A stretch of 64,000 nt of DNA from Raillietiella orientalis (lineage: Eukaryota): contig JAYWIR010000037.1 in the NCBI GenBank assembly GCA_036172245.1, positions 372,001-436,000 of the forward strand, in the 5' to 3' direction. Each line of letters starts with the position of its first letter. The stretch's first letter is position 1. Below, one piece after another: positions 3,001 through 34,105 of the stretch. A model generated the notes under the pieces. It was not told the DNA's origin. It did not search any database and was given only the letters and a program-made list of their open reading frames with translations. The translations under genes and the position numbers were made by a program.

Positions 3001-6000
3001 GTTTCGGAATTCCTTGCACGCTCCATATTCACATTCGCCATGCCCAATCTTCTGAAACAGAATCAAGCACCCATGCTGATTCGCGTGTCTTCACAAGGTG
3101 GTGTGTCTCACTTGGGATGTTTTCCTTTTCTTTTTCGATGTGTTCTTTGCTTTCAATGCTGTTAGCACTTTCATTTCTGGCTGCTGCCGTTAGTAAAAGT
3201 CTTAGGACCTTCCAAGAGACACGATCCTAATCGGTGTCACGAATTTGGGACAGTATGCAAATATGCTGTTGTCGAGGTTGATAGAATGCTAACCGAAAGA
3301 TGGTAGCATGCATCAGGACAACCCAAGACTTTGTACACGTCCTTCTAAAACCAAAGATGAGTAAACCGCCTGCATCAAGGATCAAATTGTCACAAGCTAA
3401 AGGAATTGCTAAAAGTACGCTGTTTGGAAAACCCAGGACACATTGAATTCGTGAGTGCATGTGATATGAAGCGAAACCAAGACTTTTTATGAAACGAAAG
3501 TGTGCCAAAATTTTCCATAGAATACGGAAGATGTGACTGCCACAAGCTTTTCTAAATTTCACGGTGGATCGGAGATGGGCAAATACAGGATAGTATCAGA
3601 TTTCACATTTCATAACTTCAACACCCTTTTGCTCCTCCTTTCCACTTCAGGAATATTTTCTCGTATATCTATGTGGAACCAAATAGCATGAACTTAGTTC
3701 TTTGCGAAGTCTCTTAGATTCGGAAATAAGGACTTGCGCAGTAATTAGGAATGCTCTTCACCTGGATAAGCTTCCGTTTCAGTGGATGATCATTTCTTAA
3801 AGTAGTTTGTCTTCACCTCGAGACTGGAAGGGTCTTTTCGATGTCATGCCAAAAAAATGTGAAACAGCAAGCCGGTATTCGAAATACACTCACAGATCAG
3901 AGTATTCACTTTGTCTGAGGGGGATGTTCAGTGGATGTTCTCTTCCTTTTCTATCCGTGAACATATGCGCTCGCCCTTCCCGTAGGTCCTCCACCATATG
4001 ATGGAACACCACAAAGGTAACAGACAGTTATTCGTCATTTTGGGAATACCAAAGAGGAGTGGAATTTTCTCCCGGTAGCAAGCTTTGCAAACCCCGAAAA
4101 CTCCTGGTTTACGTTGCACTCCAAACAACTGCAAACAACGGCCGCCATGGTTCCGACTTTTTGTCGGTCGAAATCGGACACAACTAGATGCTTACTCCGT
4201 AGTTTGAGATTCGCTCCGCAAATATATTTCCGAGTCGTTACTCCTCATGCTTCAGACTTCCTCAGACCTCATCCACATGAGATATTCCGTCCACTGTGAG
4301 AGTATCTCGCCCATCCTTGCTCTGGAGACATCAGTAATCACCCGCGTGCATTCTCGGATTGCCTTTCTGTTCCCTCTTCAGATTGCTTTGCGATCGTAAA
4401 GTTTTCTAATGAGCTGATTCCGGCTTGCGCGACCACTTACCGATTTCCTTGTGGGAACACCAAAAATGCCTCTTCTGTCTGTCCGAAGAAAATTCCAGAT
4501 CCTCATTTACTGCGGAGGATTATTTTTTTCCTTTTCTCGGTTTCCGACGTGCATCTCATTTACGCTGTGCTTTGCTTCGGAAGCATCGATTTCGTCCGCG
4601 ATCTCCGTCTTTTCACGAACCGTAAAACACACCCTCTCACCCGTCCTGAGTCACTTGGCCGGACTTGCAAGAAAAGTCTCGCCTACCTGCCTCTGGACTT
4701 TTTTCCAAGACTTTGCTTGCCACACGTGAGTGTGACCGAGTCACGAGTGTTTCCAGTTACGGATGTCGTAAGTCCCGGTCTTAAGTGTCTCGAGTTATGG
4801 ATGATGATCTTACAGTCTGCATTGCAGCAAAGCAGATTACTTATTCCTACATTTCCAAACTAAGATGAAAAATTTTGGAACGGGGAAAACACCCTGGATG
4901 CGTACATCCAGGATACTTCCTATGCAACAACGGGAAAAAAGATGGGGAGGGGGAAATAAGAAGGATGTGCCAGGGTGTAACACAAACGTTGACGGTTGTG
5001 AGTTCGTAGGGCACTTCCCTCTAAAATTTCGAATTCGAGAGATGGACATTGAAAGCTGCTTGCTGCTACATACTCCCTAAAGTTCCCATAAGACCAGCGC
5101 GGGGCCTGGATACTACAGCACTCTGACGAATCTCTCAGCGTGATGCAGCCATCAATTCTTCACTTTGATCTTAGCCAAAAAAACGGGCCGAGAAACTGAC
5201 GAATACGTCAGAATGGCGCAAACTGGATCAAGCACTACAAATTTGAACTGGTCAGTGAAATGTCAGAGTTCATCAGCGCTATCACGATTATTGAGTGCAC
5301 GAGTTGTAGCTGTATGGAATTGTTTGGTGTTTCAATAAAATTAGAAATGTTTGTTTGCGAAACGAATGTTCATGTGTTCTCTCTGATTCAGTGACAGCTA
5401 CTAGAGAGGAAGGAAGCGTTCAAAATGCATGCATCACTTACAAAATCGTTCTTCCAGTTTCCACAATAAATGCAGGAAGAGAGGAACAGGATTCCAGGAC
5501 CCTCGCGCTTGCCATCCATCCAATACCCCTTGTGTGTGAATGTGGAGGAGACGTATGTTCCTTTTCCGTGCTTGACGTTAGCGATCCACTGTCCTTTATA
5601 AACATCGCCATTACGATAACGATATATGCCGAGTCCCTCGCGGTTCCCGTTTCTCCAGTCACCTAGGATACTGGCATCAGCACACAAAGGTGTAAATCGC
5701 CATGGATTTGAGGAGTTAGCCGTGTGTCAGCTGGTGAAACGGGCTGCCACGGTGGCTGGCAGCAGGGATTCTCTAAGAAAAGGACACATCCGTTGGAATG
5801 TGTGCCTCAAGTCATCTGTGGTCATTCAGGAAACGGCACTTCACTCCTTCGTGTGAAACGCGTTCATCTACGGAACTTTTTGGACATGCCGGACCTGTTA
5901 GCAAAAAATACAAGAACCCTGTCACGGGCTTATCTTTCTTATTAATTAAATCGTTCCTGTTCCTGGAAAGGGATTCCGAATTCGCTCGAAGTTTACGTCT

Positions 6001-8796
6001 CTTGTCATGGGTGAGGGTCATTACGATTGCAATTACTCATTCATTATGAGTTCCCGCTCAACACTTTCCTCTCGCCGTGCATCGTTAGTGCATTGCAAGC
6101 TTACTGTATCCGCATTGAACCACTTTTCATTCTCATAAATCTCGTGGCTCGACTGGGAAACTGAGCTTACGTGCGAAAATGCTTCCATGACCACTTCACT
6201 TGACATGATATGAAGATGGCTTCTTGAGGTTTGGATTTAAGAAAGGTTGCTTCAGCGTTCGGTGCCTTTACAGCAAAACCCCATTCTTGACGGCGCGCGA
6301 CCTTTGCCCCGCAGCTTTCGAGTACATGCATGCGGATCGGTCTTCATCGGAACGCATGCCTTCCGAGTAGCCTGCATTACTACAAGTGTGTGAAAAAAGG
6401 GACATCCGCAAGTTGTACACCCAAACACCATGACCGTAGCCTTTACACAGACTTGGGGGGACACGCTGTTGTGTACGTGCACGAGAAAAAGTCACGGCAT
6501 CCGGGAGGAAAACGATGGAAAGTGGCCGTTTGGAATGGTTGCAAGCGGGAGTGAGAAGGCATCTATGCACATGGACTTGTGCTGAAAGGAGCAGGGGGTA
6601 CAATGCAACTTCTGCAGGCATGCGATCGATGCATCTGAGCTTCTCCTCGTGTTTTATGAAATCGAATCAGAAAACTTATCCTTCAGAAGGAGAGATTTTG
6701 CTCACATTTTCCTACAGACGCCTGGCAAGAATCTTTCCTTTGGAACCTTCGGATTGACAAGTTTTCACGCAGCCTGAGAAGTCCAAAATTATCGCTCCGA
6801 ATTGGGTTTGGAGATTCAGAAGAATAAGATTTCGAACGGAGTGTTTCACAGTTCTCCGATGGACGCTTTCTCATTAGACTTATTCCGTGCTTCTTACGGT
6901 TTTTCGCTGCTGGCTATCCAAAACTGCTCTTCAGGCAAGCTGCTCTGCTTCGTCCAATCTTGCATACAGTCTTTCATCCAAAGGGCTTGCCAATCCTGAG
7001 AACTTATTTCCTTTATCCTGGATGGATACTTCGTTTCTTAAAATCCCATTACTGGGATTCATTGTAGTTTCATCATTCCTTGCTTTTCCAGTACTCAATG
7101 TTCTACATGACCCATTTCATGGCCCACACACGAGGCCTATGATTTCCAAAGTGCTTCTTCATTTAATGCACACTTTGCTGTCTGACGGTGACCATGATGC
7201 ACGCGTTCTCCTACTCCCTTTCCTCCATTACAATGATGAGGTGCTTGGATCAGTGGGGGGGGTTCCATTCTTTAAGAAGAAAAAGTTGTAGGAATTGCAA
7301 TTAAGGATCGGCATTCAGTTGTGTCCAACAAAAATGAGGAAAAAAAGAAAAGAAAAACTGTTGTATTGAAAGAGTTACATTCGCTAAAGTTCAAAACTGG
7401 GCCGAACATCAAAGGTTGAGTTTTTCACCACTTTCCTCAGACCAAAAAATCTGTCGTGAGGTCCTTGAATTTTTCCTACTACTTCCTGACTGCTTTCCTC
7501 CTTCTAAAGCCATTTCACTGTACCTGCTATGTCGCTGCTCCTTTTCTTGGTAAGGTGGGGGCTTTTGATGAGGGGAAACTTTCCTTCGTGAGTACTTGTA
7601 AGTGAGTGTCAACTATGAAATTGCACTTTCTGATCCTTACGGTCTTTAACAGCCAGAAACTGACGAGAGTATCGAGTCCTGGAGTACCTTCCGTACTTCG
7701 CATTTTTTCCTCCTTCTTTTGATACCCCGTCTAACACCTTGAAATTTCATACCAGCAGCTATGAGACACTCGGAACACAATCTTATACCGATGCATTTGA
7801 AGTTGTGATGAAAGTCACCACTGATTTCGTTTCACCACCCCGAAAAGAGCAACTCAACGAGGAGGTTTTTTTTTTTGAACCCTCCCCTCCCCGTCTTTCC
7901 TTTCGGTCAGCATTTGAGTGGATGTCTTCTGTTTCTCGATAATGAAATCACGAAACGGAGTCCTGGTCGATTGAAGTTGCTGCTTCCAGATCTCGCTTTG
8001 TGTATGCTGTGTTGCAATGAAAGACAATCCTAGATTTGTCGCTCGTTGAAAGTGACACCCGAGTACCGTCATTTCAACCATCACGTCAAGGATTAGAAAG
8101 ACATAAGAAAGACCTGTGCACTGAGAACAAGGTTACTCTCCTTTACTTGGTCTGGAATGCAATTTGACTGCTGTAAATGCATTCAGTGTCTGTATGCATT
8201 CAGAGAAGAGGCAAAAGTCCCCCCCCCCCCACCGCCATCAGAGAGAGAGAGAGAAAGAAAGGATAACGAAGCAGAGTGATGAATCCAAGATTCGGGATTT
8301 GCAATTCGAAAGCTGAGTGCCAAAAACACACATGCAGACAAGTCATAGCTTTCGAGTGAGGGAAAGAATAGAAAAAGGATTCAGTGCTTGGTAATTCGTT
8401 ATGCCTTGAGCACCAGATTTCTCACCATCACTTGATTTCCATCTTACTAAATTGTGCATCATCGCTAGATATCATATTGCATATATATGAAGACTTGGGC
8501 TCCAGATATTTTTGATTCCCACAGAGATTAGATTAGAACACTTTTAATGCACCGTAAGCACTAAAAAGGTAACCTTTGTAGCTTGTGCCATCAGGGTACA
8601 CCATTTCTCCTGGTCCATGCTTTGTTCCATCAGTCCATATTCCTTTATACTGAGCCTTCGATTTCATGTATCTATAAACTCCATATCCGTTTCTTTTATT
8701 ACTTTTATACCAGCCCTCGAAAATATCTCCATTAGGTAAGATTGCTCTTCCTTTCCCATGTCTTTGTCCGAGTTCATTTCTTTCTCCTTCATAAAT
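1..8796 (-). CDS. RSPH1: Radial spoke head protein 1 homolog (MORN-repeat protein), partial: first exon not located, 3' end runs off the window
   Basis: Phase-consistent GT-AG exons 8796-8574 ([30 protein letters not shown]...YPDGTSYK), 5662-5442 ([26 protein letters not shown]...GNWKNDF), 1931-1812 ([17 protein letters not shown]...EESIE) and 168-1 ([16 protein letters not shown]...). Tandem MORN repeats followed by PxGPGxYVF, an acidic stretch and VPxKWK match the remembered RSPH1 layout. Confidence 0.88.
700..1222 (-). mobile_element. Decayed Tc1/mariner transposase fragment in an RSPH1 intron
   Basis: Frameshifted minus-strand peptides [30 protein letters not shown] and [13 protein letters not shown] resemble, in order, the VNxxxY...LLP, FQQDGAPAH and WPxNSPDLNP motifs. 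Confidence 0.45.
2120..2144. repeat. (TA)n microsatellite
   Basis: Run of tatatata... read directly. Confidence 0.9.
3650..4480 (-). mobile_element. Highly decayed Tc1-like transposase remnant
   Basis: Ordered weak motifs [18 protein letters not shown] (GRPR/HTH-like), ISTDKK (FSDESK-like) and YGGG (KHGGGS-like), with many stops and frameshifts. Confidence 0.3.
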
Positions 8797-8954
8797 CTTA
8801 AATATAATTAGCAGAAAATTAACCCTCACTTTGTAAGTATCACTTTATTCAGTGAAGCAGCATACACACACGCACGCACACACAAAGAGGCAGAGGCAGA
8901 TGGACCAAAAATGAACATAACGGGAAAATCAATTCATTTTTTTTTTTTTTTTTT

Positions 8955-12500: not shown

Positions 12501-13921
12501 TTTATGATCAAACTTTGTAGATGAAGTTGCCAACGGAAATTTTGTGTAGGGAACCATTTCTGATAATTATTTCTTCTGTCAGTTTGAGGAAAGGATTCCG
12601 TGTTGCTGAAAAAAGCAGTTTAGAATTGTTTGACTTAATTTATAGCATTCTTATTACCTAAGTGCTACAGAAAATAACTGGAAGTATAAAACTGAAGATT
12701 GTACTATAACCGTTGAGATTTTCGATGCGAAGAATTAAAAGAAAAAATTAAAACAGGATTCATCTGGGTTTTTTCGGAGTTCATGGGTATTAATATTTCA
12801 GTTGTAAATCATGTGCTTTCTTTCTTTAGTGCTTTTTTTGAAATCCATTATTAAACACTTATTTAATGTTTTTTAAAAATCCAATCAAAATACATTCGCC
12901 TGTGTTTTCGATTTGGAAGATATTTCTGCAAGCATATATATGGAGGCTTATGATATAGTTTCCTTTTTTTTTTTCTTTTTTTTTTCACATTTTCTGAATT
13001 TATTCTATATTTTGAATGGCATTCAACAAAACTCTTTCGTGTAGCATTTATCAGCATTTTATTAAGAAATGATTAAGGAGTTATTTGTTATGCTTTTATT
13101 CAATTTCTAAAGAGCTGTATTTGTTTTTGGATAAATTGCAATATTACTTTGTAGAATAAGGGCGTGTTCGTGTTATTTGCACTGCGATTACATGTATAGC
13201 ATAAGGAAGCTATGTTAAGTGTTCCTGCGTTCAGTCTTTGTAGGGTTTAAGGTAGATTAAATTCTCTTTTTATTTTTGAAATGCTAGTGATGCGATTCTA
13301 AGCATCCATCGGTGATTTCTTTTAGTTTTTACTTTCTGCTGTTTGTATGTAATTCATTTTGTGAGCTCTCCATTCGCCTACATGCGTAATTTTGCTTCTG
13401 GACATTTTGAAACTTCAACCTTCCGAGATTTTCCAGGAAACAACTAAAAGTGGTGTTCCCTCGAGCCATTATTTCACTTTAGTAATGCAGGAGACTAAGG
13501 TTTTGCTTCTGAACTAATGCAGTAAGGGGTTAAATTTGCTGTAATTTGTATGTTGATGCATGTGCGTTTTTAATTCTATTAATGAAATCGGTCAAATTAT
13601 TCTCATAATTTTGACAAATCTAGCACGATTGTCGTGCCCATGTCATACGATGTAGCATGAAGTCGTACATTTCATGTTATATCGTCAATTATACTTGCAA
13701 TAATTATGGGATAGTTGTGTTTGTATAATCGTCTCAAAAAAGTATTTTCGAAGCATTTTCATCTCAACAAGAATTTTAAGTATGCTAGCTCTCTTATAAT
13801 TGTTGTTTACTTTCAGAAAGAATTTGTGTTTTCGTACTAGTGTAAATGGAGATATTTCAATTTTTTTATTAAGTGTTTGGAATGTTGTAATGTTTTAAAA
13901 GAGGTGATGTAGCCAAAGAAT

Positions 13922-16442
13922 ATGCCCATTTCAAAAAGAGTTGTTGAACCGATTTATGTCTCAAGAAGTGTCATACCTAAGGAACTAAAGTTTGAGAATG
14001 AATTACAAGCAGTTAACAATGGAACCCTTTCAAATGTTATACGCCAACTAGCAAGTCTTAGCAAACATTCAGAAGATTTGTTTTCAGAACTTACTCATGA
14101 AGCAGAAAAGAATTATCAGAGAATTATACTTCTGCAAGAGAGAATAGACAGGGTTTCCAGGAAAGTAACCAAGTTAAACAGTACATATGAAGAAGGTAAG
14201 TAGTTCCATGTTTTTATTGTTGATGTGAAGTTAAATGCTCGAGTTTAGAGTTCAGTGTACTTTCAACATACAAGGTGTTAAATATGTTAAATGGAGAGAA
14301 AAAGGTAAAGCAAAAAGGTGCAGTTAGTTTCATGTGCAAGCTATAAAACAGAAAATCAATGAGTTGAAGTTTTTTGTATAATGTAAACCTAAGATAAAAT
14401 ATAATGGTTTACCTTCTGTAGAGAATCTCTCATCTATTTCTGGTTGTTAAGTGTTTTTAATCCTTATCGAGATCATGTTTATTTTACATGTAAGTTGTTT
14501 TTGGCAAGCACCATGATTGTTGGGAGCAATTTTTTAATATTGTGCAAAGAATTGTGACCAGAAGTTATTCCATGGTCTTTTGATTGCAATCAATTCTAAC
14601 ATTTGCAGTTTCTCATAAAGACATCTTGAAGAAGAAACCATTCAAAAGCAGTGATACATTTGATCAGCAAGTAATTAGCAGGTTAACCATGCCTACTGCA
14701 ATGGCTGAACAGTACCTTCTTTGTGATAAACCACCTTCATTAGATTTACTCAATCGTTACAGGTAAAGCATTGGGTTATATGAGCTTTTACCATTGCTAG
14801 CCATTTACCTTTTACCATTTCAGAGATGATGGGAAGGATGGACTTAAATTTTACACAGATCCTAACTATTTTTTTGATCGTTGGAGACAGCAAATGGATC
14901 GAGAAAAACATCTACATGATATCAATAAGAAGGTGAGTAAAAGTGTATGTATGTAATAAGAGACCATGATGGCTAGTCTTGTCTTATTTGTTATGTATTC
15001 CCCTATAGCATTTCTGTGTGGGCGAGACAGGGGAGTTGGAGGCAAGTTTGGTGTGTCTTTAGTTTTCTGCATGTTTTCTGCTGATGCAGGGCTCAATTGT
15101 TTGTTTATTCTTAATCTGCGATTTTTGAGTAATCCCTACTCAGTTTTGTCTATATTTCTATTTGCTTCGATATTTAGTATCAGACTTCTTGCCATTGGAT
15201 TATTACGTTATGCTTTGTAGGTAAACAAACCTCGGCCTGAGGGAACTGGGATGCATAAAAAGAAAATTCATGCACAGCATGAAAAACAAGGAAGAATGGC
15301 ATCCCCAGAGGAATACATGTGTGGACAGCCTACTTTTCCACACTCTTATGTGGATTTGTACCAGCAGGCCAGTTACATCTTTATGTATTTTTGAAAATCC
15401 AACAATGATTCCACAGGATAGGAATGTTCCTTTTGAAACTGATAACATGGACATGAAAAGTCACTATTCTCATAATGGCATTAGTGTCAATTCATCTCAC
15501 AGGACTCTTTCTTACAGAGCTGCATACAGTGAATATAATGAACAAACTATTCATCATTCTGAAGGAATTAATCATGTGAATTCCTTACATTCTCCTAGTC
15601 GGACACTATCCCGTGTCACTCACCGCCCCTCACAGCCTCCTCCTGCTCCTCCTCTTGCAAGTTTAGGATACTCTGCAAGTAACATATCTGCCTGTAGTTC
15701 TCCAGCTTCCTCTACAGGAAGCCATACTCCAACTCGAGTAGCTTGGACAAGCAGTCTTGGTCGTGATAGCCTCCCACCTCCACCACCCCCTCCCATTGAC
15801 AGTCCCCTCATCAATGGACTGAGTGATCAGTTAGTAATAGAAACTTCTCTGACTAGGTAGGTGTTGTTGTTGTTTTCATCCTTTGAAATTATTTATTACA
15901 GCCAATATGGAAATGACCATGTGAATTCAGTTGCTGGAGAGCAGGATATTAATGATCTGCCTCCTCCACCACCAACTCCTATTGTTTTCAAAGAGGAGAG
16001 TGTGAAATTGAATACACAGAACTTGGAAAATGTTCCACCTCCTCCACCTCTACCTCTTCCTTCTTTAATTAAAGAAAAAAATTCACCTCGAAGCCAAGGT
16101 CTTGATTATGGAATTAGTGAGTTTTTTGATCACAGTTACAGTCAATAATAAAATTGCTCCCCAGAACAAGCCAATCTTGAACAGGTTCCCAAAGATTTGA
16201 AAAAGCCACTGAAAAATATGGATCAGTTAGATGCACGTAGTGATCTTTTGAAAGCCATTCGAGATGGAATAAAATTACGGAAAGTAGAAAATACCAAAGC
16301 CAAAGAAGTACAATGCAAGCAGCCTCTTCAGGATGTGGCTTCCATTTTGGCAAGACGAGTGGCTATGGAGTTTTCTGATTCTGAATCAGATTCAGAAAGT
16401 GAGGAAGAAAATGAAGGATGGGATGAAGAGTTCAGTACATGA
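13922..16442 (+). CDS. SCAR: Wiskott-Aldrich syndrome protein family member (WAVE/SCAR), ~530 aa
   Basis: Exons 13922-14195, 14609-14762, 14824-14932, 15221-15318, 15365-15829, 15902-16116, 16165-16442. WAVE homology domain [10 protein letters not shown]...[29 protein letters not shown]...[16 protein letters not shown], polyproline tracts, WH2 [19 protein letters not shown], central DVASILARR and acidic tail with W. Confidence 0.96.
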
Positions 16443-17391: not shown

Positions 17392-19275
17392 TTATTTGTC
17401 TGGGCAGTCAACTTGTTGAGAAGGATGAGCTTGTTTAAAAACAGGCAAAGCTTCCAGAGTTTTTTGCAGTCTCTCAATAATTGGGAAAGGTTTAAGGCTT
17501 ACATTGAATCTAACATAAAAGGTTACTAAAAAGTTTTTTTTATGGATTTACAAACCTGTGTGCATTGTATGCTTGTGGCACTAGACAACAGTCAGCAAGG
17601 GTTAATTGGTCCCCAACAGAATACTGGCCAGCACAATTTGCTAAAAGCTTTTCAAGTGCTTCATAACATTGAGAGTATTAATCGTACTGTGAGCACTGTT
17701 GGTACTACCTTCAAAACCCTTATGGATCCATTTTTGTGCCCAAGGTGCTCTTTTATCTTCATCCAAGGACATTAAAACTTCCATATTTTGTAATGGCTGT
17801 ATACCAGAAGCAATTAATTCACATATTTCTCGTACCTATAACTATGCTTATTATTGTCAATTGAGACTGAATTTAACCTTTGCTCTCTCATAAACATCAT
17901 TTGGAAGTAATGCAGGAAAAGGCCACTTTTCTTCTATAAACTCCAAAATGCTAATCTGAAACCATAAGGGTTTTGAAGTATATTTTGTGTCAACATACTG
18001 ATTGAGTGAGGATTTTATCATCCACTGCTAATGCAGGCACTTGTTTCCTAGGATTAATAGCCTGATATTCAGAAGTATTCTAGAATAACAAGGTTCATTG
18101 AATCATCAGTTTACTAAAAATGTTTCAATACTTGCTGTCCTCCATCTTTGATTAAGTTGATGACGGTTGTTTCAAACTGAACTCCCTTCAAACCTAATGC
18201 TTAAAAAGTAGATAGAGTGAAAATTTTAATGAAACTGATGAGCTTGGTTGGACCTCCAAATAAAAGGGGACAACAAAACAAGTCTAAACATAAGCAATAA
18301 AAGTATGCGCAGTCTAAACAGGTAAGTGCACACATATTTAGTAATATGAACTAGAAAATTTGAATTAGAAAATCATGATTTCAATTCCATTTTTTAAATA
18401 ATCTTTTTACATTATGCTATGCCTCTATCATAAAAAAAAACGGCACACAGAATCTTTGATTATTGTGAACTGCAAATATTTACCTAATCTCACTCTCCAT
18501 GCACATGAGCTTCGATAGTATGAATATAAGACCACCTAAAAGTACAACATGAATAGTATGTGTCTGTATAAAAAACATCATCTATTCACACACTACTCCA
18601 GAAAGCTATAAATGTTGCAGTATGATTTCTGCTACATAAGTTAAGAGATTCTGTCGTGCAAGTTAGCTTTCAGTAACAAATTTCCATAAATAAAAATGGA
18701 GATCTGTTCTGGCCGATTGATGTTAATATGAAAGTCATTCCAATTATTAACTCCAATCGTACAACGTCCATCTGCTGGAAGCTGCCATAATAGTTCTTGT
18801 GATTTCTGCTGATAAAAAACATTCTCCGATGCGTACGTAAGCAATTTTTTTGCATTCAAGCATTATAAAAAAAATATGCAAACAATTTTGTATATTTAGT
18901 TATGACCTTTTGGACGATGTTATGATATAACTGATATAAACCTCGCATTCACACATGGAAACTACGATGGCTAATCAAAATAAAAATGCGGTAATACATT
19001 TCTGGACTACTTTCAAAATTTATTACTGCACAGTTATCTTACATAAACCATACAATTTTTTTTTTTTTTACTTTCTGAGAATTCAAAAGCCAACAGTATC
19101 AATGTGATTTTAAATACTACAATGACATATAAGTACAGAAGTGAGCAGAATCTATCTTTCAACACAAACAACGTATTAAATCCTAGTAATGGAGTGATCT
19201 GTTTTAAGGGAGAATTAAGACGAAAAAAAACGAAAATTATCCTCAAATGAGGAGCCTTACTTTAGAGGATGACAT
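17392..19275 (-). CDS. GSTZ1: Glutathione S-transferase zeta / maleylacetoacetate isomerase, 213 aa
   Basis: Eight exons 19275-19261, 18535-18484, 18199-18132, 18079-17999, 17955-17878, 17835-17709, 17658-17556, 17509-17392 (642 nt). Diagnostic LYSYYRSSCAWRVRLAL, NPRKQVPAL, LTQS, IASGIQPLQN, VGDQLTLADCCLVPQ and AHPSQQVDCP. Confidence 0.97.
18612..18815 (-). repeat. Dispersed repeat copy 1 (MULE-transposase-like remnant) in GSTZ1 intron 1
   Basis: Shares blocks such as atgatttctgct, gtaacaaatttcca, tggagatctgttct and ctgccataatagtt with 24598-24775 in the same orientation. Minus-strand GVNNWNDFHININRP..LWKFV weakly resembles MULE TNNxxExWH...HPxxWxF. Confidence 0.6.
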
Positions 19276-19442
19276 GGTTCCGAATCACGAGCACGGCAGA
19301 ATGACGCACTTGCTAGGTTTTTCGGAAACCTGCAAACTTGACCCTTGGCTATGTATTTGCTGGTCAAGCGGAACATCCGGTATGAGGATGTTCTAAATTC
19401 TTTTAAGCTTCAGAGGAATTACTTGCTATAAATTGATTAATA
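19276..19442. promoter_or_regulatory. Putative bidirectional promoter shared by GSTZ1 and POMT2
   Basis: 167 bp between divergent ATGs. CpG-containing relative to the CpG-poor gene bodies, with two adjacent inverted repeats (cttgacc..ggtcaag 19337-19368; gaacatcc..ggatgttc 19371-19393). Confidence 0.75.
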
Positions 19443-22400
19443 ATGTGTACGAAGCGGTGCAGTTCAAAGGAAAGCAATGTGCTGCCGGAGTTACAGTAAG
19501 CGTTTTTTGCATACTAATTTTGTGGGATGTAGGCCACAAGAATTTGAGGAATTTAAGGGCAGTTAGCATAGATGCTTCCCCATAAGTTATTTTCGGTCTG
19601 ACTTTATTGCTACACTAATCAGTTTTGATACAAGATTGTGAAAGTTTGCATTTATTCATTACATTTTTGATATTGAATTGCTGATCTTTATGAAATTAGA
19701 ACCCCAGAAAATTATTCAACATGGTGGCTTTTATTTTTGGTATTTTGGATTTTGGGAGCAGTTTCAAGGTATTATAAACTGGATCAACCAGCTCATGTGT
19801 GGTAAGAATTTGTGTTTTTCTATCATGAAAATGAAATTGGAAACTTGCAAATGATTTTTTAACAGCTGTGAGGCAATTGCTTGACTTGTAAGAAGCATTT
19901 ATACAGAGGAAAAACAGCAAAGAAAGAATTGCCCTCACATGTTTAACTTGGTGTGTAAAATCTGTTTAAAAACTCTATGGTTCAAGGTATAGGGTGGGTT
20001 TTGACATATATTTTTTGTTTACAGTTGGGATGAAACACACTTTGGAAAAATGGCCAGTTGGTACATAAACCACACATTTTTCTTTGATGTACATCCTCCT
20101 TTAGGAAAGGTTAGCTAATCGCAAGTTTAAAAATTCATTTGATCATTATTAATTTTATGAATGTGAATGATTAGCTATCTTAAGCACTTTCTTTGTAGAT
20201 GTTAATTGCTCTGTCAGGAAAATTATGTGGTTATAATGGTAGTTTCCCATTCACCAAACCTGGAGAAAAATATGAGGACACGAATTTTTTGGGAATGCGC
20301 CTGGTAAGGTTTTCATAGATATGTGTAGAGGTCATTTTATGTGTACTTTCAGTTTTGTGCTACATGTGGAGTTTGCCTAGTTCCTTTTTGCTACATGATT
20401 GTGTGGGAACTCACAAAATCTCTTACAGCTGCTTCACTTAGTGCATTGCTGGTGGTTTGTGGTAGGCTACAATGAAGAAGATGTAATACTTTTTTATTTG
20501 TAGAAATAGGAACTATCACCCTGTCTCAATATATACTTTTGGATCCAATTCTTCTGTTTTTCATTTTTGCATCTGCAACGTGTGCTTTCAAAGTAAGATC
20601 GCATTTTTGCAGGTAAATCTATAAGTACATAATTGGATGATCGTATTGCTGTGAAGATCTTTTAGTTTTATTTGGTGGTTATGGTTAATGCTTGAAGGTG
20701 TGTGCTTAGCAGGTGCTATAGGAGTAAAATTTGTTGGCATTTTCATTGTTTGCTATGGTGGTGTAATAGCCCTTATTGATTTATGGGATATCTGGGGAGA
20801 TGTGTCTCATCCATTGGTAAGTTTATATAAGCAGGTTCTATTGCCAATGCTCTGGAAGACATATTTTGCCAAGCACTTTGGGGCACGTGTGGTGTGTTTG
20901 TTGATCCTGCCAGTTTTGCTCTATTTGCTTGCTTTTGCCATACATTTGGCTATACTAAACCAGTCGTAAGTATTTTGCCTATGACTACCAAAAGATCATT
21001 TGTTTTTAGTGGAAATGGTGATGGGCATTTCAGTTCTGCTTTTCAAGCTAGACTAGAAAATAATTTTCTTCATGGTGCCAGTATGCCATATGGTAAATAA
21101 AGGTGATCCTGACACGAATAATGAAAAACTGTATTAGAAGTTGCATATGGCTCAGTAATTACTTTAAAGAATTGGCGTTCAGGTGGAGGATACTTGCATT
21201 CTCATCTTCATTTGTATCCATCAAACGTAGGTGCACGCCAACAGCAGATTACAGCATATTTTCATAAAGATGAAAACAACAGGTTTCTATTGAAAGTAAG
21301 TTTGTTGAATCTTAAATTCTTCAGTGTTTAAATATGATGTTAGCCATACAATCGGGATGTGCATCCTGATGATCCAGTTACTCTGATCCATAATGGAGAT
21401 TTAGTGAGATTGGAACATGTCCCAACCAGGCGCAATTTACATTCACATAGGGAAAAGGCTCCTATGACCAAACGTCATTATCAAGTTACTGGATACGGGG
21501 AGGTGAGATTTAATGGGAAACATTTCGGAAGTGTTGTTAAAGAATGGTACTGGAGATGCTAATGATGTTTGGAAAGTGGACATTGTTGGAGGCAAAGAAG
21601 GTCAAGTACTGACTACTATGACTAGTCAGTTGCGTTTAATACATTACTTGTTGGGATGTGCTCTTTATTCTCATAATCAACAGCTCCCTAAATGGTGAGC
21701 TGATTTGAGAGAAAATCTCATTTTCACATCTCATGTAGGGGCTGGGAACAATTAGAAGTGACTTGCAATCCTAACATTCATGGTGCCAACACTATCTGGA
21801 ATATTGAAGAAAACCATTTCTCAAAGTGTAAGTAGTTGCTTTTGAGATATGCTGTTATTTCTTAGACAGTGCCTAATGTCAGCTTGCGAGAACATGCTTC
21901 TGGATTTCTAGATGCATTTCTTGAATCTCACATTGTAATGATACAGAGCAATGCAGGCCTCAAACCTAAAGAAGGAGAACTAACTTCTAGACCATGGCAC
22001 TGGCCACTGGATTTGAAGGTATTGCATCTGATACTACCAATTTATTATCTGCTTCCAGGGGCAGTTTTTCTCTTTGTCACCTTTTCTCGTTTACATGCTT
22101 GGCAATCCTATCATCTTCTGGGGTAACCTGCTGTGTTTGGTTCTTTTCTGTGGAACTTATCTCTGCTTGGCAGTGCGACTTCAGCGTTATTCTACCACTT
22201 CACTAGCTGCTATTGTTACAGGTAAGGCATCAGTGTGCTTTCTTATCACATTATTTTTTTAGAAAGTAGCCACCAGATTTTGAGAGGAGGTGGCTGGATT
22301 TTTCTGGGATGGTTATTTCATTATTTGCCTTTTTGGTTTATGACAAGAATTCTTTATTTTCACCATTACTTCCCAGCAGCTATCTTCAGTTGTATGCTGA

Positions 22401-22676
22401 CTGGGATCCTGTTAGATTACTTTCTAAAAATATTAACTGTTCACTTGCCAGATTTCTTTGCCACATATGTTTATCATTGTATCTTGGGAGCCATCATTTA
22501 TACTGTTATTTACAGGTTTGTTTGTTTTATAAATTATTCTGTTAACATAACAAGTGTAAAATTATTTTAGTTTTTATTTGTTTTCTCCATTAACTTATGG
22601 CATCACAAGTCCTAATACCACTGATCCAAATAGTCCTTTACATCACATCAAATGGTGGGATACATGGGAATTTTGA
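19443..22676 (+). CDS. POMT2: Protein O-mannosyltransferase 2 (twisted ortholog), ~17 exons
   Basis: Spliced motifs [68 protein letters not shown] domains (GGYLHSH, RRNLHSH), [26 protein letters not shown] and C-terminal KWWDTWEF*. The first exon 19443-19495 is less certain. Confidence 0.96.
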
Positions 22677-26073: not shown

Positions 26074-29000
26074 ATGTCTGCCAGATCTAAATCAAAGAAA
26101 GGAGAAATTAATTCCAAAGTTAATGCAAAGTTACAACAGAATGAAACCAGAAACCGTAAGTATGGCATTTATATGTAAGACATTGTTTATTTTGGCAATA
26201 GCTTACGTTCAAAACTTTTCATTTCAAGTTTCTCAAAATCTTCCTTGCGTCAGCAATAAGTAAAAAAAAAAAATGCAAAACTTTTACAGAATAAAATTTC
26301 TGTCCATGTTACTTGTTCCGTTATCCATTTTCACTGCCTCATAACGTCTTATGTATTTTACGTTTGCGTTCTTTGATTTTGAAGTTGAAGAATGTTGGAA
26401 TAGATCTCTTTATAATCACCCGTAAGGAGCATCAGTACTACCAGTATTGGTATTAGGACTTTAGGGAATTATTATTGTTGCTGCAATATACTTATGGCAA
26501 ACGCTGATATTTTTCTTGTTTGTTTTCATGTTTGTTAGCAAAATGTGTTGCAAAAAAAAAAGTGAAACAAATACAATAATTGCAGAAAGGACTTTGCCTC
26601 CGATTCCTTTGCAAGTTTCCGAACTTTCACCAAAATCAGCTACGAGCGAATCTCTTCGTGGTAAAACAGCAACCGAGGAATCGGACAGAAAAGATGTAGT
26701 AGTTACTGAACGTATTCCTGGAAAATATTCTAAAAGAACTGTAATCTGCAACTGGGACAAGTATCATTTGCCACCAAATGAGGAGAATGATGATGATGAC
26801 GTTACTGATAGAAGTCGAGGAGCTGATTTTAGCCAGTTGATCCATTCTACAGGTACATTTGCAATTTTCTTCCATGACGAGCATTTGTGCAGAAAATTGT
26901 TTGAAGTTTTTGTGAACTATTTGCATTATTTTTGTCCAGAATCAAAGTTTTAAAAATAAGCCGCCCTTCCAAAGCAATTTTTTTTAAAAAAAAAATCAAT
27001 GTTGTTACAGTCTTCGAATATACCCACTCATTTCTTATACTGTATTGTCTTGTGTATCGTGAGCTATTGTAGGGGATATTACCACTTTCACAGCAGTTTC
27101 CAAAACCATTGTTGATCCTCATAGTGACAGTTCTCGTCTGGACCTCACTCGTTTAAAAGAATTTTCGACCTATTGGTTGACCTTCCTATACAAGTAGTTC
27201 TGCAGTGCTGTAGTAAACGCGCATTTCAGCTAGCCAGAAATCGTGTACAGTGACTTCTATGTACACATCATAAATTACTGTTGTTCTTTTTTTGTTTTTG
27301 TTTTTTTCATTTCGTTTCATGCGAAGGAATTGCCATGCTGTACTATTTAACACCATTCCTTCGACTTCTGTGGTGCGTTTGCTTTGTGAAATCCGAGTTT
27401 TTCTTGGAGTGGTAAGAAAGTTCGTGTTATTTTTCTGGATCTGTTCGAGATTTGGAATAATTTTGGATGCTTTTGGAGATGATTTCTTCGGCTATACCCA
27501 TCAGCTACTACCGATGCCAACCACTAGCATTAGCGCTGAGATGTTGTTGGTCGAATGTGGATGCTTAAAGAATATGCGGTATTTTTACAGTGTTAAAGTA
27601 GGCATACCCATTCTTCGTAAGAATTCGGGGTATTCGTTCTTTTTATCTTAATCCTTTTCATCAGTTGTTTGCAACCTTCCTGCAAAAATTGAATTTCTTT
27701 GTAAGTCAGGCGCCAGATGATGTAGTGAACGTCTGGACCGACAACTTCTTTAGTAGATGACGGAGAGACTCTTGGAAGGGTTGCTCCATAGGATCGAAAA
27801 TCTGAAAATTGGGTGGAGCTGCGTTGAGAGAAATTTCGGCAGAGCTGTCAGTGGGTCCATTTGCAGGTCCTGAGAGTCTGTTGGTAAAGAAAACAACATT
27901 TGGCATTCTGAGCGAGCACTGCGTGCCTCTTTGGTAGACTTTCTGCATCTGGGAATAGGAGTGAGTCTATTCGCGTTTTTCAAATTGATGCGAGTAGCCG
28001 AAGCTTCAAAAACGAAGACCTCAGTTGAGGAAAAGCTGAAGACTTGTTGAAAACCAACTTGGTTTCGTAGGTTTGCAAAGCCCACGGAGGTACTTTAGGG
28101 AAAGTACATTATCATTCGCTGTAACTCTCTCCTTACGATGATGAGGTTGTGAGGTTGTTTTAGGAGTGTGTTGATGTCTGTCGAAAAACTAGCCATGCAA
28201 ACTTGTCTGTGTTGCTTATATTCACTGGCGTTCGTTACTCGTTTCAACGAATACCTTCGCAGAATTGATTCAGAGTGTGAGCACATTCCCTGATATAGGT
28301 TCGATGCATGTTTGGAATGGATCAGGGTCAAGTTTGACGAGTTTTTCAGAGCTTTCGTCACAGAAGGTCGAAGCTAACATGTGGTCATTCCGTCAGTAGG
28401 GTGCTCTCACATGGTTCACAAGTTGTTACAGATTGTTCCAAAAACACGAGTGCTCCTGAGGGACGTAAGACCCTTTCGCTAACGCCTTTTCCGCGTAGTG
28501 CCGTGCAGACTTTGTAGGCGTTTGACTTTTTGGATGTTTCGGACACGCTGGACGGTTCAGTGCGGCACGATGTCCAGCAAGGACTTCAGTTTTGTGCATT
28601 TTCGACGAAATGCGTGCACGTTTTGATCACGGGTTCCAGCGTCACATCAACTGTGCCCATTTCATTCAGATGGAATCAGTTAGGTGTTTGAAAGTTCGTC
28701 TCCTTCAGTTCAAGCCGTTAGTCGTCGGATCGAACGAATCGAAAGCATTCTCGTTATTCTTCGGTGCACTTCGACGTCATTCCGTGTGTTTGGAATTTTC
28801 TGCAACCTTTCGCGACCGGTTTTTCAAAATCCAGGTGCATGAATATGATTTCTCAAAATGTTCCTCCCTGTCTTTTTCTGTGTATTCTTTGCATCTGTTT
28901 TCATATGCACGAAACAGTGTTATTTGAAGGTCGATGCGTGTGCGTAGGTACGTACGGGAACTTGTTCCAGTTCAGCCAAGAGAAAGATTGGGAGAAGATT

Positions 29001-29537
29001 GATTTCCAGGAAACGTTTGATCTCGTACGCCTGGATCTTCAAGAGTTGTCACTCGCTGTACGTTGTGTCCCCGTTCCGGACAGGCTCATGCTAGATAAGG
29101 AGCTTTTCAAGGTAAGCGTCCCCTTCTATAGGTGTGCGCATGTGTGCGGTTTCAAGACCCTTGTGTCAGCCAAATGTGTCTTTCAGGCAGAAGAACTTGA
29201 TGAATTTCAAAGAGTAGCCGAACAGAATCTCAAACATTACTACACGTTATTCGATTTAGCTAAAAGCTTGCCGGAAGTAGAAATCACCAGCGTTCGTGCT
29301 ATCGGCGTGTCTTCACACGAGGGGAATGTGTCTTCGTCGGCTACGGAGACAACCACGAGCGCTGATAGAAGAAGTCTGTGCCTTGACAAAGAGAGAACTG
29401 AGAAAGAACTTGACGTCTTGAGGGCAATCGAGAGTGCGATGGTCAAGGATGATTCTGCTTCAACTCCTGATGTTTTTGGAAGCCATAAAGATGATAGTGA
29501 CTTGGAAAACGATTTCGAAGAACTGCTTAAACTTTGA
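26074..29537 (+). CDS. AVEN: Cell death regulator Aven-like protein, ~287 aa
   Basis: Exons 26074-26155, 26586-26852, 28948-29111, 29187-29537 are phase-consistent. Conserved Aven-type blocks KYSKRTVICNWDKY, RGADFSQLIHS, FQFSQEKDWE, LDLQELSLAVRCVPVPDRL and C-terminal DLENDFEELL. The first exon is inferred from phase. Confidence 0.82.
27650..28600 (-). mobile_element. Decayed pogo/Tigger-like (DDE_1) transposase remnant in AVEN intron 2
   Basis: PVNISNTDK (NIYNxDETG-like) followed by APPNFQIFDPMEQPFQESLR (LPPNxTHxLQPLDxxxFxPLK-like), with many stops. Confidence 0.4.
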
Positions 29538-32071: not shown

Positions 32072-34105
32072 TCACTTCATCGTAGGCATAGCAGTTGCTG
32101 ACTTTGATACTGTAATGCTGTCTTGACGCCACAAAGAGGTTACAGTTTTCAGTTGGGTAAAAAAATTGATTCCCTAAACCCAATGATTAAGATCAACTGT
32201 AGTAAGCTACTTACTCCTTTCCCATAAAAATTGAGGTCTCCATAAAATGAACGTCTTGATCCAGTAAAAGAGAACATGGGTAAAGGCACTGGGATTGGGA
32301 CATTGACTCCAACCTAACAAAAGTTAGTTCTGTTAGCTGAGTTCTGAATCAGGCTTGCTTACTTGTCCAACATCTACTCCATGTATGAATTTGTGTGCTG
32401 CCACTCCACTGTTTGTAAAAATGGCTGTCCCATTTCCATAAGGATTATTATTTATCATCTCAATTGCATCATCTAAGGTTTCTGCAGTTAAAAGGAGAAG
32501 CACAGGTCCAAAGATTTCTGTCTTATAGCACTCCATGTTTGTCTGAATTATCTACTGGAACACCATGAAGAATGAATAAACTAACCTTGACATCTGTAAG
32601 GATTGTCGGTCCAACAAAATATCCTTCCTCATAACCAGGAACCTGTACATTCCGGCCATCTAATAAGCACTGAGCTCCCTGTTGCACAGCTGATTCAATG
32701 AGACTGCATACTTTTTTCTTAGCCTCAGCACTGATTAATGGTCCCAAGTCAGCTTGTTCATCACAACCTACATACCCATTCACTAGAAGATACAAGTACA
32801 TCTTCTTCATACCTGGTCTCACTTTTAGTGATTTTGCCTTATCTACCAATTCAGGAATCCAGGCTTGGCTGTCACCCACAAATATGGCTGTGGACAAAGC
32901 CATGCATCTTTGACCAGCTGCCCCAAATCCAGCTCCGACCAGCTGGCTCAGTGTTTGTTCCCGGTTGGCATCGGGCAAGATAACACCATGGTTCTTGGCA
33001 CCCATATTGCATTGAACTCGTTTGCCACTACGGCATGCTCGATCATAGATGTAGGCTCCCTTGAAGCACAAATTCCTCCATGTGAAATTACAAATCCGCG
33101 GAAAAAAAAAAAAAAAGCATCTTACTGCTGAATCAGAACCAACAAAAGACACAGCTTCTATATCAGGATGATCACACAAGAATGTCACAGCTTCCTGCTG
33201 CCCATGGATCACATTCACTACACCATCTGGACACCCAGCATCTTGAAACAATTTGATCAGTAACATGGTTGCACCAGGATCCCTCTCAGATGGCTTCAAA
33301 ACAAATGTATTTCCACATACAGTAGCCACTGGAAACATCTAAACTGATAAATGAGCTAGCCTGTTATTTTCTAAGATACCCAAAGAGGAATCATGGCAGG
33401 GAAGTTGAAAGGTGTGATTCCAGCACACACACCTAAGGGTACCCTGTAACTAACAATGTCCATATCCTTACTGATACCAGATAAACTTTCTCCCAGTTGC
33501 AAAGATGTAACGCTACAGCAATGCTCAACGACCTCTGTCACACATAAATCGGAAATAATTTCTAAACACATTAACAATATTTACGTAATCCCCTATGAAC
33601 ATCTCCTTCTGCATCCATCAATGTTTTTCCTTGTTCTAACGTTATCAGTTCTGCAATTTCTTCCTGCAGGATAAAGATATTCTCAGATAGGCATATCAAC
33701 TTCATGATCAAATGAACATCTAAAACCTTTGATCATACCATGTGTTGTTTTATGAGTTGTTGGTACTTGAAGAGAATCTGTTGCCTCGTGAGAATCGAAG
33801 TTTTTGACCATAATGGAAATGCTTGCTTTGCAGCAGCAACCGCCAATTTCATTTCATCCGGCGTGGAATTTGGCACCCTGCTGATAATCTATGTGACCCA
33901 GTTAGTATTCATTGCAAGTTTACTGAAATGAATCTCAACGTACTTCATTTGTTGCCGGGTTACGTAAATGAATCCAGTTTCCCGTTTTTGATTCCAGAAA
34001 TTCTCCATTTATGAATAATTTTGTATCAGGGATATTTTTCGTTGTGTAATGCTTAAATAAAGTACCAGTTCGAAATAGCAGGCTCTTCTCAATGCCACGA
34101 AACAT
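32072..34105 (-). CDS. ALDH6A1: Methylmalonate-semialdehyde dehydrogenase (acylating), mitochondrial, 522 aa
   Basis: Ten exons 34105-33944, 33888-33739, 33663-33585, 33534-33380, 33338-33126, 33059-32813, 32767-32586, 32542-32363, 32313-32215, 32173-32072 (1569 nt). Motifs [48 protein letters not shown] (catalytic Cys), [19 protein letters not shown], plus a basic transit-like N-terminus. Confidence 0.98.

Follow-up and report, generated by a model that had tools for sequence, protein, structure and literature searches.

When two genes lie head to head in the genome of an invertebrate and their human orthologues do so as well, has the arrangement been inherited from a common ancestor, or has it come about more than once? 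This question is raised by a stretch of 64,000 nt from Raillietiella orientalis (GenBank assembly GCA_036172245.1, contig JAYWIR010000037.1, positions 372,001 to 436,000 of the forward strand), referred to here as the window and used for all coordinates unless a locus is named. An earlier note, made from the letters of this DNA, had seen a gene for GSTZ1 (maleylacetoacetate isomerase, MAAI, of the zeta class of glutathione S-transferases, GSTs) next to, and divergent from, a gene for protein O-mannosyl-transferase 2 (POMT2), with start codons 167 bp apart. We confirm the head-to-head GSTZ1-POMT2 pair in the window and report the same pair, in the same orientation, from two springtail loci, which is new. 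Ancestry rather than convergence is the most likely explanation.

To obtain the gene models, we read all three frames of either strand and checked each junction. GSTZ1 lies on the minus and POMT2 on the plus strand, with nothing between them, and their start codons (19275 and 19443, respectively) enclose the 167 bp of 19276-19442, as the earlier note had stated. The pair is hence divergent with a spacing below 1 kb. GT-AG borders were found at all 23 introns of the two genes, 18 of which measure 40-55 nt. Whereas the human GSTZ1 and POMT2 genes are large, those of the window span 1.9-3.2 kb each, with introns mostly in this narrow range. In POMT2 (16 of 16 introns GT-AG) the first three introns are 204, 223 and 89 nt long and the other 13 fall within 40-55 nt. 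The seven GT-AG introns of GSTZ1 (725, 284, 52, 43, 42, 50 and 46 nt) leave an open frame. The POMT2 start is backed by alignments with arthropod POMT2 proteins of almost equal length (710 versus 709 aa), in which residue 1 of the model pairs with residue 1 of the arthropod protein. Only five codons (MSSSK) make up the first GSTZ1 exon. When 18536-19442 was scanned for ATG mini-exons that have a strong phase-0 donor, two candidates emerged, 19275-19261 and 19051-19043; we preferred the former because its 'SK' matches the beginning of a springtail MAAI in the alignment. The alternative exon of three codons would widen the gap to 391 bp, and the orientation would still be head-to-head.

Judged from its predicted product, the minus-strand gene is a zeta-class GST and the orthologue of GSTZ1. 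All six scanned exons matched the family model TIGR01262 (maiA) in collinear order (18-38, 40-66, 68-92, 93-140, 142-173 and 176-210); exon 2, with 17 aa, was too short, and the rough sum over the singly scanned exons, 147.5 bits, is to be compared with a cut-off of 171 that applies to the whole protein. All five PDB matches of exon 6 (42 aa) were MAAI or GST zeta structures, namely those of mouse (2cz2, E 1.6e-08), human (8e8p and 1fw1) and Arabidopsis (1e6b), together with 4igj. The zeta-class assignment made from the sequence at first reading is supported by the exon matches to TIGR01262 and the PDB matches of exon 6. GST C-terminal Pfam families were matched by one exon piece, and over 207 aa the spliced product shares 44% identity with a springtail MAAI (P0186). 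Exon 2 carries an SSC motif (YRSSCAWRVRL), with FRSSCSWRVRI and FRSSASWRVRI as its counterparts in the two springtail loci described below (L035 and L036, respectively); we take it to correspond to the N-terminal Ser-Ser-Cys active-site motif of human GSTZ1.

The plus-strand gene is assigned to POMT2 and not to POMT1. Pfam matches to its exon pieces are ordered along the gene, with PF02366 PMT (E 1.7e-16), PF02815 MIR (E 1.5e-06) and PF16192 PMT_4TMC (E 3.3e-20 and 1.7e-07). The catalytic DE motif of loop 1 is intact (WDETHFGK). The gene keeps 173 of the 181 columns that are invariant across 20 POMT2 proteins; neither the D nor the E column is one of the eight that changed. Word-indexed protein searches with single exons gave one match each, and an exhaustive search, run with one exon, brought up fragments for the most part. 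Of the ten best relatives from the latter that were looked up, full-length or partial, four bear a POMT name, and each of these is a POMT2 (Elysia, Salarias, Bactrocera and Clavelina). No POMT1-named entry occurs among the 120 relatives listed for the Elysia POMT2 query or among 20 clusters looked up. The window protein is 53-58% identical, over almost its full length, to the 60 best-matching POMT2 proteins of the 120 listed, several of the alignments spanning the first to the last residue.

In trees of 41 (LG+C20) and 46 (LG+G4) rows, both built from sequences other than POMT1, the window gene lies inside a metazoan POMT2 clade with a Shimodaira-Hasegawa-like approximate likelihood ratio (SH-aLRT) support of 100, where the sampled arthropods are its sister group (93 and 97). 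POMT1 is excluded, if indirectly, because the window gene is nested among bilaterian POMT2 genes. The two proteins belong to different subfamilies of the family, POMT1 to PMT4 and POMT2 to PMT2 (PMC4489896). In line with this division, a named POMT2 scored highest against yeast Pmt2 (450.6 bits), followed by Pmt1 (370.9) and Pmt4 (320.6), and exons 7-8 of the window gene gave 45.4 bits with yeast Pmt2 and 24.4 with Pmt4 (PDB sequences). Five metagenome loci (L050-L054), whose proteins are about 31-35% identical to POMT2, were considered as stand-ins for POMT1 and dropped; one of them, L051, scored 89.8 bits with yeast Pmt2 versus 44.8 with Pmt4. With its POMT2 branching beside that of the arthropods, the lineage of the window is ecdysozoan by this marker.

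For a wider view of the arrangement, an alignment of 20 POMT2 proteins was used to scan JGI metagenome contigs. The scan matched 214 stretches, of which 145 encoded relatives, and left us with 80 loci. For some of these (L060-L062, and L072, L074 and L075) the figures match, and the same DNA may have been sampled more than once. We regarded 25 of the 80 as informative, their first POMT2 segment beginning within residue 60, with more than 2 kb of upstream sequence and at least 40% identity. All 80 were searched for zeta GSTs by tblastn with the GSTZ protein of the window and a springtail MAAI. In two of the 25 informative loci (L035 and L036) a zeta GST lies directly upstream of POMT2 on the opposite strand, and a relaxed tblastn threshold disclosed no further zeta GST among the 80. 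In L035 the GSTZ start codon is at 2296 (minus) and POMT2 is coding by 3079 (plus), which leaves a gap of at most ~0.8 kb. In L036 the GSTZ gene starts with an ATG at 4828 or 4840, and POMT2 is first recognisable in an exon at ~5900, the POMT2 ATG being in an upstream exon that we could not place, so that the gap is no wider than ~1.0 kb. Both loci group with the springtail Orchesella (SH-aLRT 100), and they are distinct from each other, with 76% and about 52-56% identity to Orchesella. Both genes have fewer introns there than in the window, of ~70-120 nt. For the other window neighbours tested (WASH, MORN, ALDH6A1 and five unnamed open reading frames, ORFs) none of the 80 loci gave a match, and the flanks of L036 are of a different kind (Snf7 and a NUP214-like gene). 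It is only the GSTZ1-POMT2 junction itself that is conserved between the window and the springtail loci.

The human arrangement, to which the earlier note had referred, is documented in published supplements. POMT2-GSTZ1 is listed as a human divergent pair with a distance of 5 bp between transcription start sites (PMC3815023, supplementary file 1, row 191), and POMT2/MAAI as a human divergent pair with an intergenic distance below zero (PMC2871058, supplementary file 6, row 569); the latter list comprises 924 human divergent pairs less than 1 kb apart that recur in another species. Chromosome conformation capture (3C) data are described as giving a single interaction peak from the promoter regions of both human genes (PMC5224503). 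The pair at 14q24.3 and that of the window thus share the two orthologues, the 5'-5' orientation and a short distance between starts, measured as 5 bp between transcription start sites in human versus 167 bp between start codons in the window. In amphioxus, a neuroglobin-like gene has orthologues of POMT2 and GSTZ1 in its vicinity, all on one scaffold (PMC3087553, Ebner et al. 2010). POMT2 also adjoins globins in Trichoplax and sea urchin, with no conserved co-localisation reported for the protostomes examined there (PMC3485006, Droege et al. 2012). The same pair in the same orientation is consequently on record from the window, two springtail loci and, by way of the supplements, human, mouse and chicken, and as linkage only from amphioxus.

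Pairs of this kind form a known class. A survey of 17 metazoans described 795 conserved microsyntenic groups, enriched in 5'-5' orientation and sub-kilobase intergenic regions (PMC3514665, Irimia et al. 2012), and GSTZ1-POMT2 may already stand among them. Our literature search found no paper on POMT2 and GSTZ1 with 'bidirectional', none on POMT2 with 'microsynteny', and no protostome study that treats the two genes together. Nor was the pair found in the supplements of PMC5429095 (12 of 16 files), PMC8851819 and PMC11175523, which may use gene identifiers instead of symbols. Like other conserved ancestral microsyntenic pairs (CAMPs) with 5'-5' orientation, for example HSPE1-HSPD1 (PMC3514665, PMC2871058), GSTZ1 and POMT2 are neighbours that diverge from a short intergenic region in more than one phylum, and in this class unrelated genes, too, are kept together, their retention being explained by a shared or entangled promoter. 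Unlike GSTZ1 and POMT2, HSPE1 and HSPD1 are functionally related and stay linked in nearly all species studied, whereas the linkage of the two functionally unrelated genes considered here has been lost in most of the arthropod loci that we examined. A second comparison is offered by the NGB-POMT2(-GSTZ1) microsynteny, in which POMT2 likewise acts as a deep anchor, in vertebrates, amphioxus, sea urchin and Trichoplax (PMC3087553, PMC3485006). Those papers differ from our case in that they centre on the globin neighbour, with no protostome example and no discussion of a GSTZ1-POMT2 promoter.

The surroundings of the pair in the window are summarised together with the gene models in Table 1. About 10 kb from the pair there are exons of an ALDH6A1-type gene (methylmalonate-semialdehyde dehydrogenase), the top PDB matches of which are the mitochondrial enzyme (E 7e-87), with a further match to Pfam Aldedh. 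Human ALDH6A1 is located at 14q24.3 (PMC9842923), the band of POMT2 and GSTZ1, and three 14q24.3 orthologues within 16 kb fit a conserved ancestral linkage group. Although NGB-POMT2 linkage has been reported from the four groups named above, we found no globin 3' of POMT2, unlike in human: none of 129 ORFs of at least 35 aa in 22.7-32.5 kb was globin-like at a Pfam E-value of 0.01 or below, the 17 longer ORFs having been scanned separately. Of the ORFs at 26.4-31.1 kb, several long ones (up to 271 aa) had no Pfam match, and the longest, the unnamed 271-aa ORF at 28722-29537, gave no usable match in the ESM Atlas. On the other side of the pair, the WASH-type gene, with a WAHD domain below the cut-off and a WH2 motif, ends ~0.9 kb from the 3' end of GSTZ1, and a gene for a MORN-repeat protein lies further out. 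The composition of the window shifts abruptly, from 30-45% GC in 1-37 kb to 50-65% in 38000-64000, where runs of poly-G, GA and poly-T occur and where neither Pfam (39 long ORFs) nor Rfam gave any match. This GC-rich part could be an assembly join of unlike DNA or a very different genome compartment.

Table 1. Gene models of the GSTZ1-POMT2 pair, the region between them and other features (window coordinates, except for the last row)
Feature	Position	Strand	Remarks
GSTZ1 / maleylacetoacetate isomerase gene	17392..19275	-	8 exons, 213 aa
GSTZ1 exons 1-4	19275-19261, 18535-18484, 18199-18132, 18079-17999	-	
GSTZ1 exons 5-8	17955-17878, 17835-17709, 17658-17556, 17509-17392	-	stop included
Presumed bidirectional promoter between start codons	19276..19442	.	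167 bp
POMT2 (protein O-mannosyl-transferase 2) gene	19443..22676	+	17 exons, 710 aa
POMT2 exons 1-6	19443-19495, 19700-19801, 20025-20109, 20199-20303, 20353-20461, 20504-20612	+	
POMT2 exons 7-12	20666-20816, 20859-20965, 21010-21092, 21138-21295, 21344-21502, 21543-21694	+	
POMT2 exons 13-17	21739-21827, 21870-22018, 22059-22221, 22263-22515, 22571-22676	+	
MORN-repeat protein gene	5388-8844	-	
WASH-type gene	13913-16442	+	
ALDH6A1-type exons	32333-33338	-	
DPM3-like ORF (locus L044)	3895-4140	-	PF08285, E 2.9e-5, 24.6 bits (cut-off 25)

How, then, did the pair come to be where it is? We think it probable, though by no means certain, that it was inherited from the protostome-deuterostome ancestor, lost repeatedly, and kept where the promoters had been packed into one short region. 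Since the window, springtails and amniotes have the same orthologues in the same divergent orientation, with linkage in amphioxus, inheritance with losses accounts for the distribution far better than repeated chance. The divergent arrangement would have been present in the last ancestor shared by protostomes and deuterostomes, and repeated loss would include most of the arthropod lineages sampled. The two core promoters would occupy, by close packing or by overlap, a single nucleosome-free region of very small extent. A break at nearly any point between the genes would in that case harm at least one of these housekeeping promoters, and the pair would be retained. Promoter sharing and this reason for retention are, in our judgement, the most likely ones. 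The earlier note had named two outcomes that would speak against an ancestral pair, a PMT gene that groups with POMT1 and absence of the pair from all intermediate lineages. Instead, the gene falls inside the metazoan POMT2 clade, and the pair occurs in two springtail loci, with linkage in amphioxus, so that the ancestral reading has stood up to both.

Several observations weigh against inheritance with a shared promoter region. Of the 25 informative loci, 23 lack the pair, and in ten of these another gene was identified directly upstream of POMT2: in mite-like loci Peptidase_M28 (L015), zuotin (L022), Sec1 (L030) and NDUFB7 (L040), in loci of a pancrustacean clade exostosin (L031) and SDE2/WTAP/PIG-S (L033), and in others GT25 (L049 and L039) and FANCM (L059 and L060). 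L039 has springtail POMT2 proteins among its best matches, yet it lacks GSTZ and has GT25 upstream, as L049 does. Some of the other negatives tell little, such as those of five termite loci, which showed no GSTZ in the 4-7 kb upstream, a weak negative given their long introns. The published list gives the pair for chicken, human and mouse only, that is, for the amniotes among the genomes surveyed (PMC2871058), and the amphioxus case is one of linkage, text and legend being silent on orientation (PMC3087553). At the level of sequence, no k-mer of 9 nt or more is common to the three intergenic regions (window, L035 and L036), and 19276-19442 is a shared bidirectional promoter by presumption, from its geometry; the 'bidirectional promoter' of the earlier note has to be scaled down to the same footing. 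For the indirect exclusion of POMT1 we drew on protein names, percentage identity, placement in the trees and scores with the yeast subfamilies, and the second window exon that was compared does not discriminate (29.8 bits with yeast Pmt2 versus 28.8 with Pmt4). Finally, the approximately unbiased (AU) test does not reject a clade of the window sequence and Collembola (p 0.294), and the ecdysozoan cases could therefore be a single retention and not two.

In a further negative locus, the eleventh with a candidate upstream gene (L044, insect-like), an ORF resembling DPM3, with a score just below the Pfam cut-off, lies ~1 kb upstream of POMT2 and on the opposite strand (Table 1). If it is real, subunit 3 of dolichol-phosphate-mannose synthase adjoins the enzyme that uses the donor.

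The loss of the pair from most arthropod-type loci examined shows that the linkage is dispensable, and it thereby lends itself to a different explanation, in which the pair is ancestral but was retained passively, with independent back-to-back promoters that offer a small target for breakpoints and with neither shared regulation nor selection on linkage. That no motif is conserved between the intergenic regions agrees with this, as does the compactness of the window genome, where introns are 40-55 nt long and short gaps may be common. The springtail gaps, on the other hand, reach ~0.8-1.0 kb, and all other neighbours have been reshuffled; that just this junction was kept in chordates and ecdysozoans is more than neutral decay usually leaves. 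Conserved pairs as a class, moreover, exhibit co-expression and conservation of orientation (PMC3514665). We consider passive retention unlikely on balance, but as an alternative to be reckoned with.

Much the same patchiness, with absence from 23 of 25 loci and a published record restricted to amniotes (PMC2871058), could also be read as convergence or chance, the head-to-head arrangement having arisen independently in chordates and in an ecdysozoan lineage. As the first reading of the window took in many gene pairs, one chance agreement with a human pair would not be out of the question from the outset. Against this, however, stand the identical single-copy orthologues in identical 5'-5' orientation in the window, two springtail loci, human, mouse and chicken, besides the amphioxus linkage; the chance of acquiring one particular 5' neighbour is ~10^-4 per independent event if roughly 10^4 genes are assumed. 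The ALDH6A1 gene ~10 kb away, which is at 14q24.3 in human as well, fits an orthologous chromosome region. Independent origin is accordingly quite improbable in our view. Least probable of all, and very much so, is a functional coupling by which the linkage would co-regulate tyrosine catabolism and detoxification with protein O-mannosylation, as the earlier note had suggested: it has the conserved adjacency itself in its favour and nothing else, no biochemical link was found in the literature examined, the Gene Ontology-based similarity of the human pair is 0.34 on the scale used in PMC2871058, where functionally related pairs make up only 8.5% of the conserved divergent human pairs, and many lineages have retained both genes without the linkage. 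The pair has been broken up in most arthropod-type loci examined here, which argues against an indispensable functional link.

Inheritance from the protostome-deuterostome ancestor, with retention in a short promoter region, is thus the explanation that we prefer. The 167 bp themselves are a local peak of GC and CpG content (GC 0.42, CpG observed/expected 0.96, seven CpG). The ETS-core-like motif CGGAA/TTCCG occurs three times in them versus 1.86 times per kb in window positions 1-37000, a weak signal from one of five motifs tried. One may go further and suppose that selection maintains the GSTZ1-POMT2 junction as a regulatory unit that predates Bilateria, in which one shared promoter, for example with ETS-type sites, drives both genes, within a remnant of an ancestral linkage group that includes ALDH6A1. 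We offer this stronger version tentatively and think it rather doubtful.

No general view is changed by these results, as the class of conserved 5'-5' pairs has been described before and the pair in human had already been catalogued. The pair of the window is a further case of this well-described class, with a wider phylogenetic reach. It adds an anchor for the invertebrate counterpart of human 14q24.3 (POMT2, GSTZ1 and ALDH6A1). Should the stronger version hold, GSTZ1-POMT2 would be among the few functionally unrelated pairs with a promoter architecture directly comparable between humans and ecdysozoans. If the arrangement is ancestral, its 167 bp would provide a compact test case for promoter entanglement versus co-regulation over more than half a billion years.

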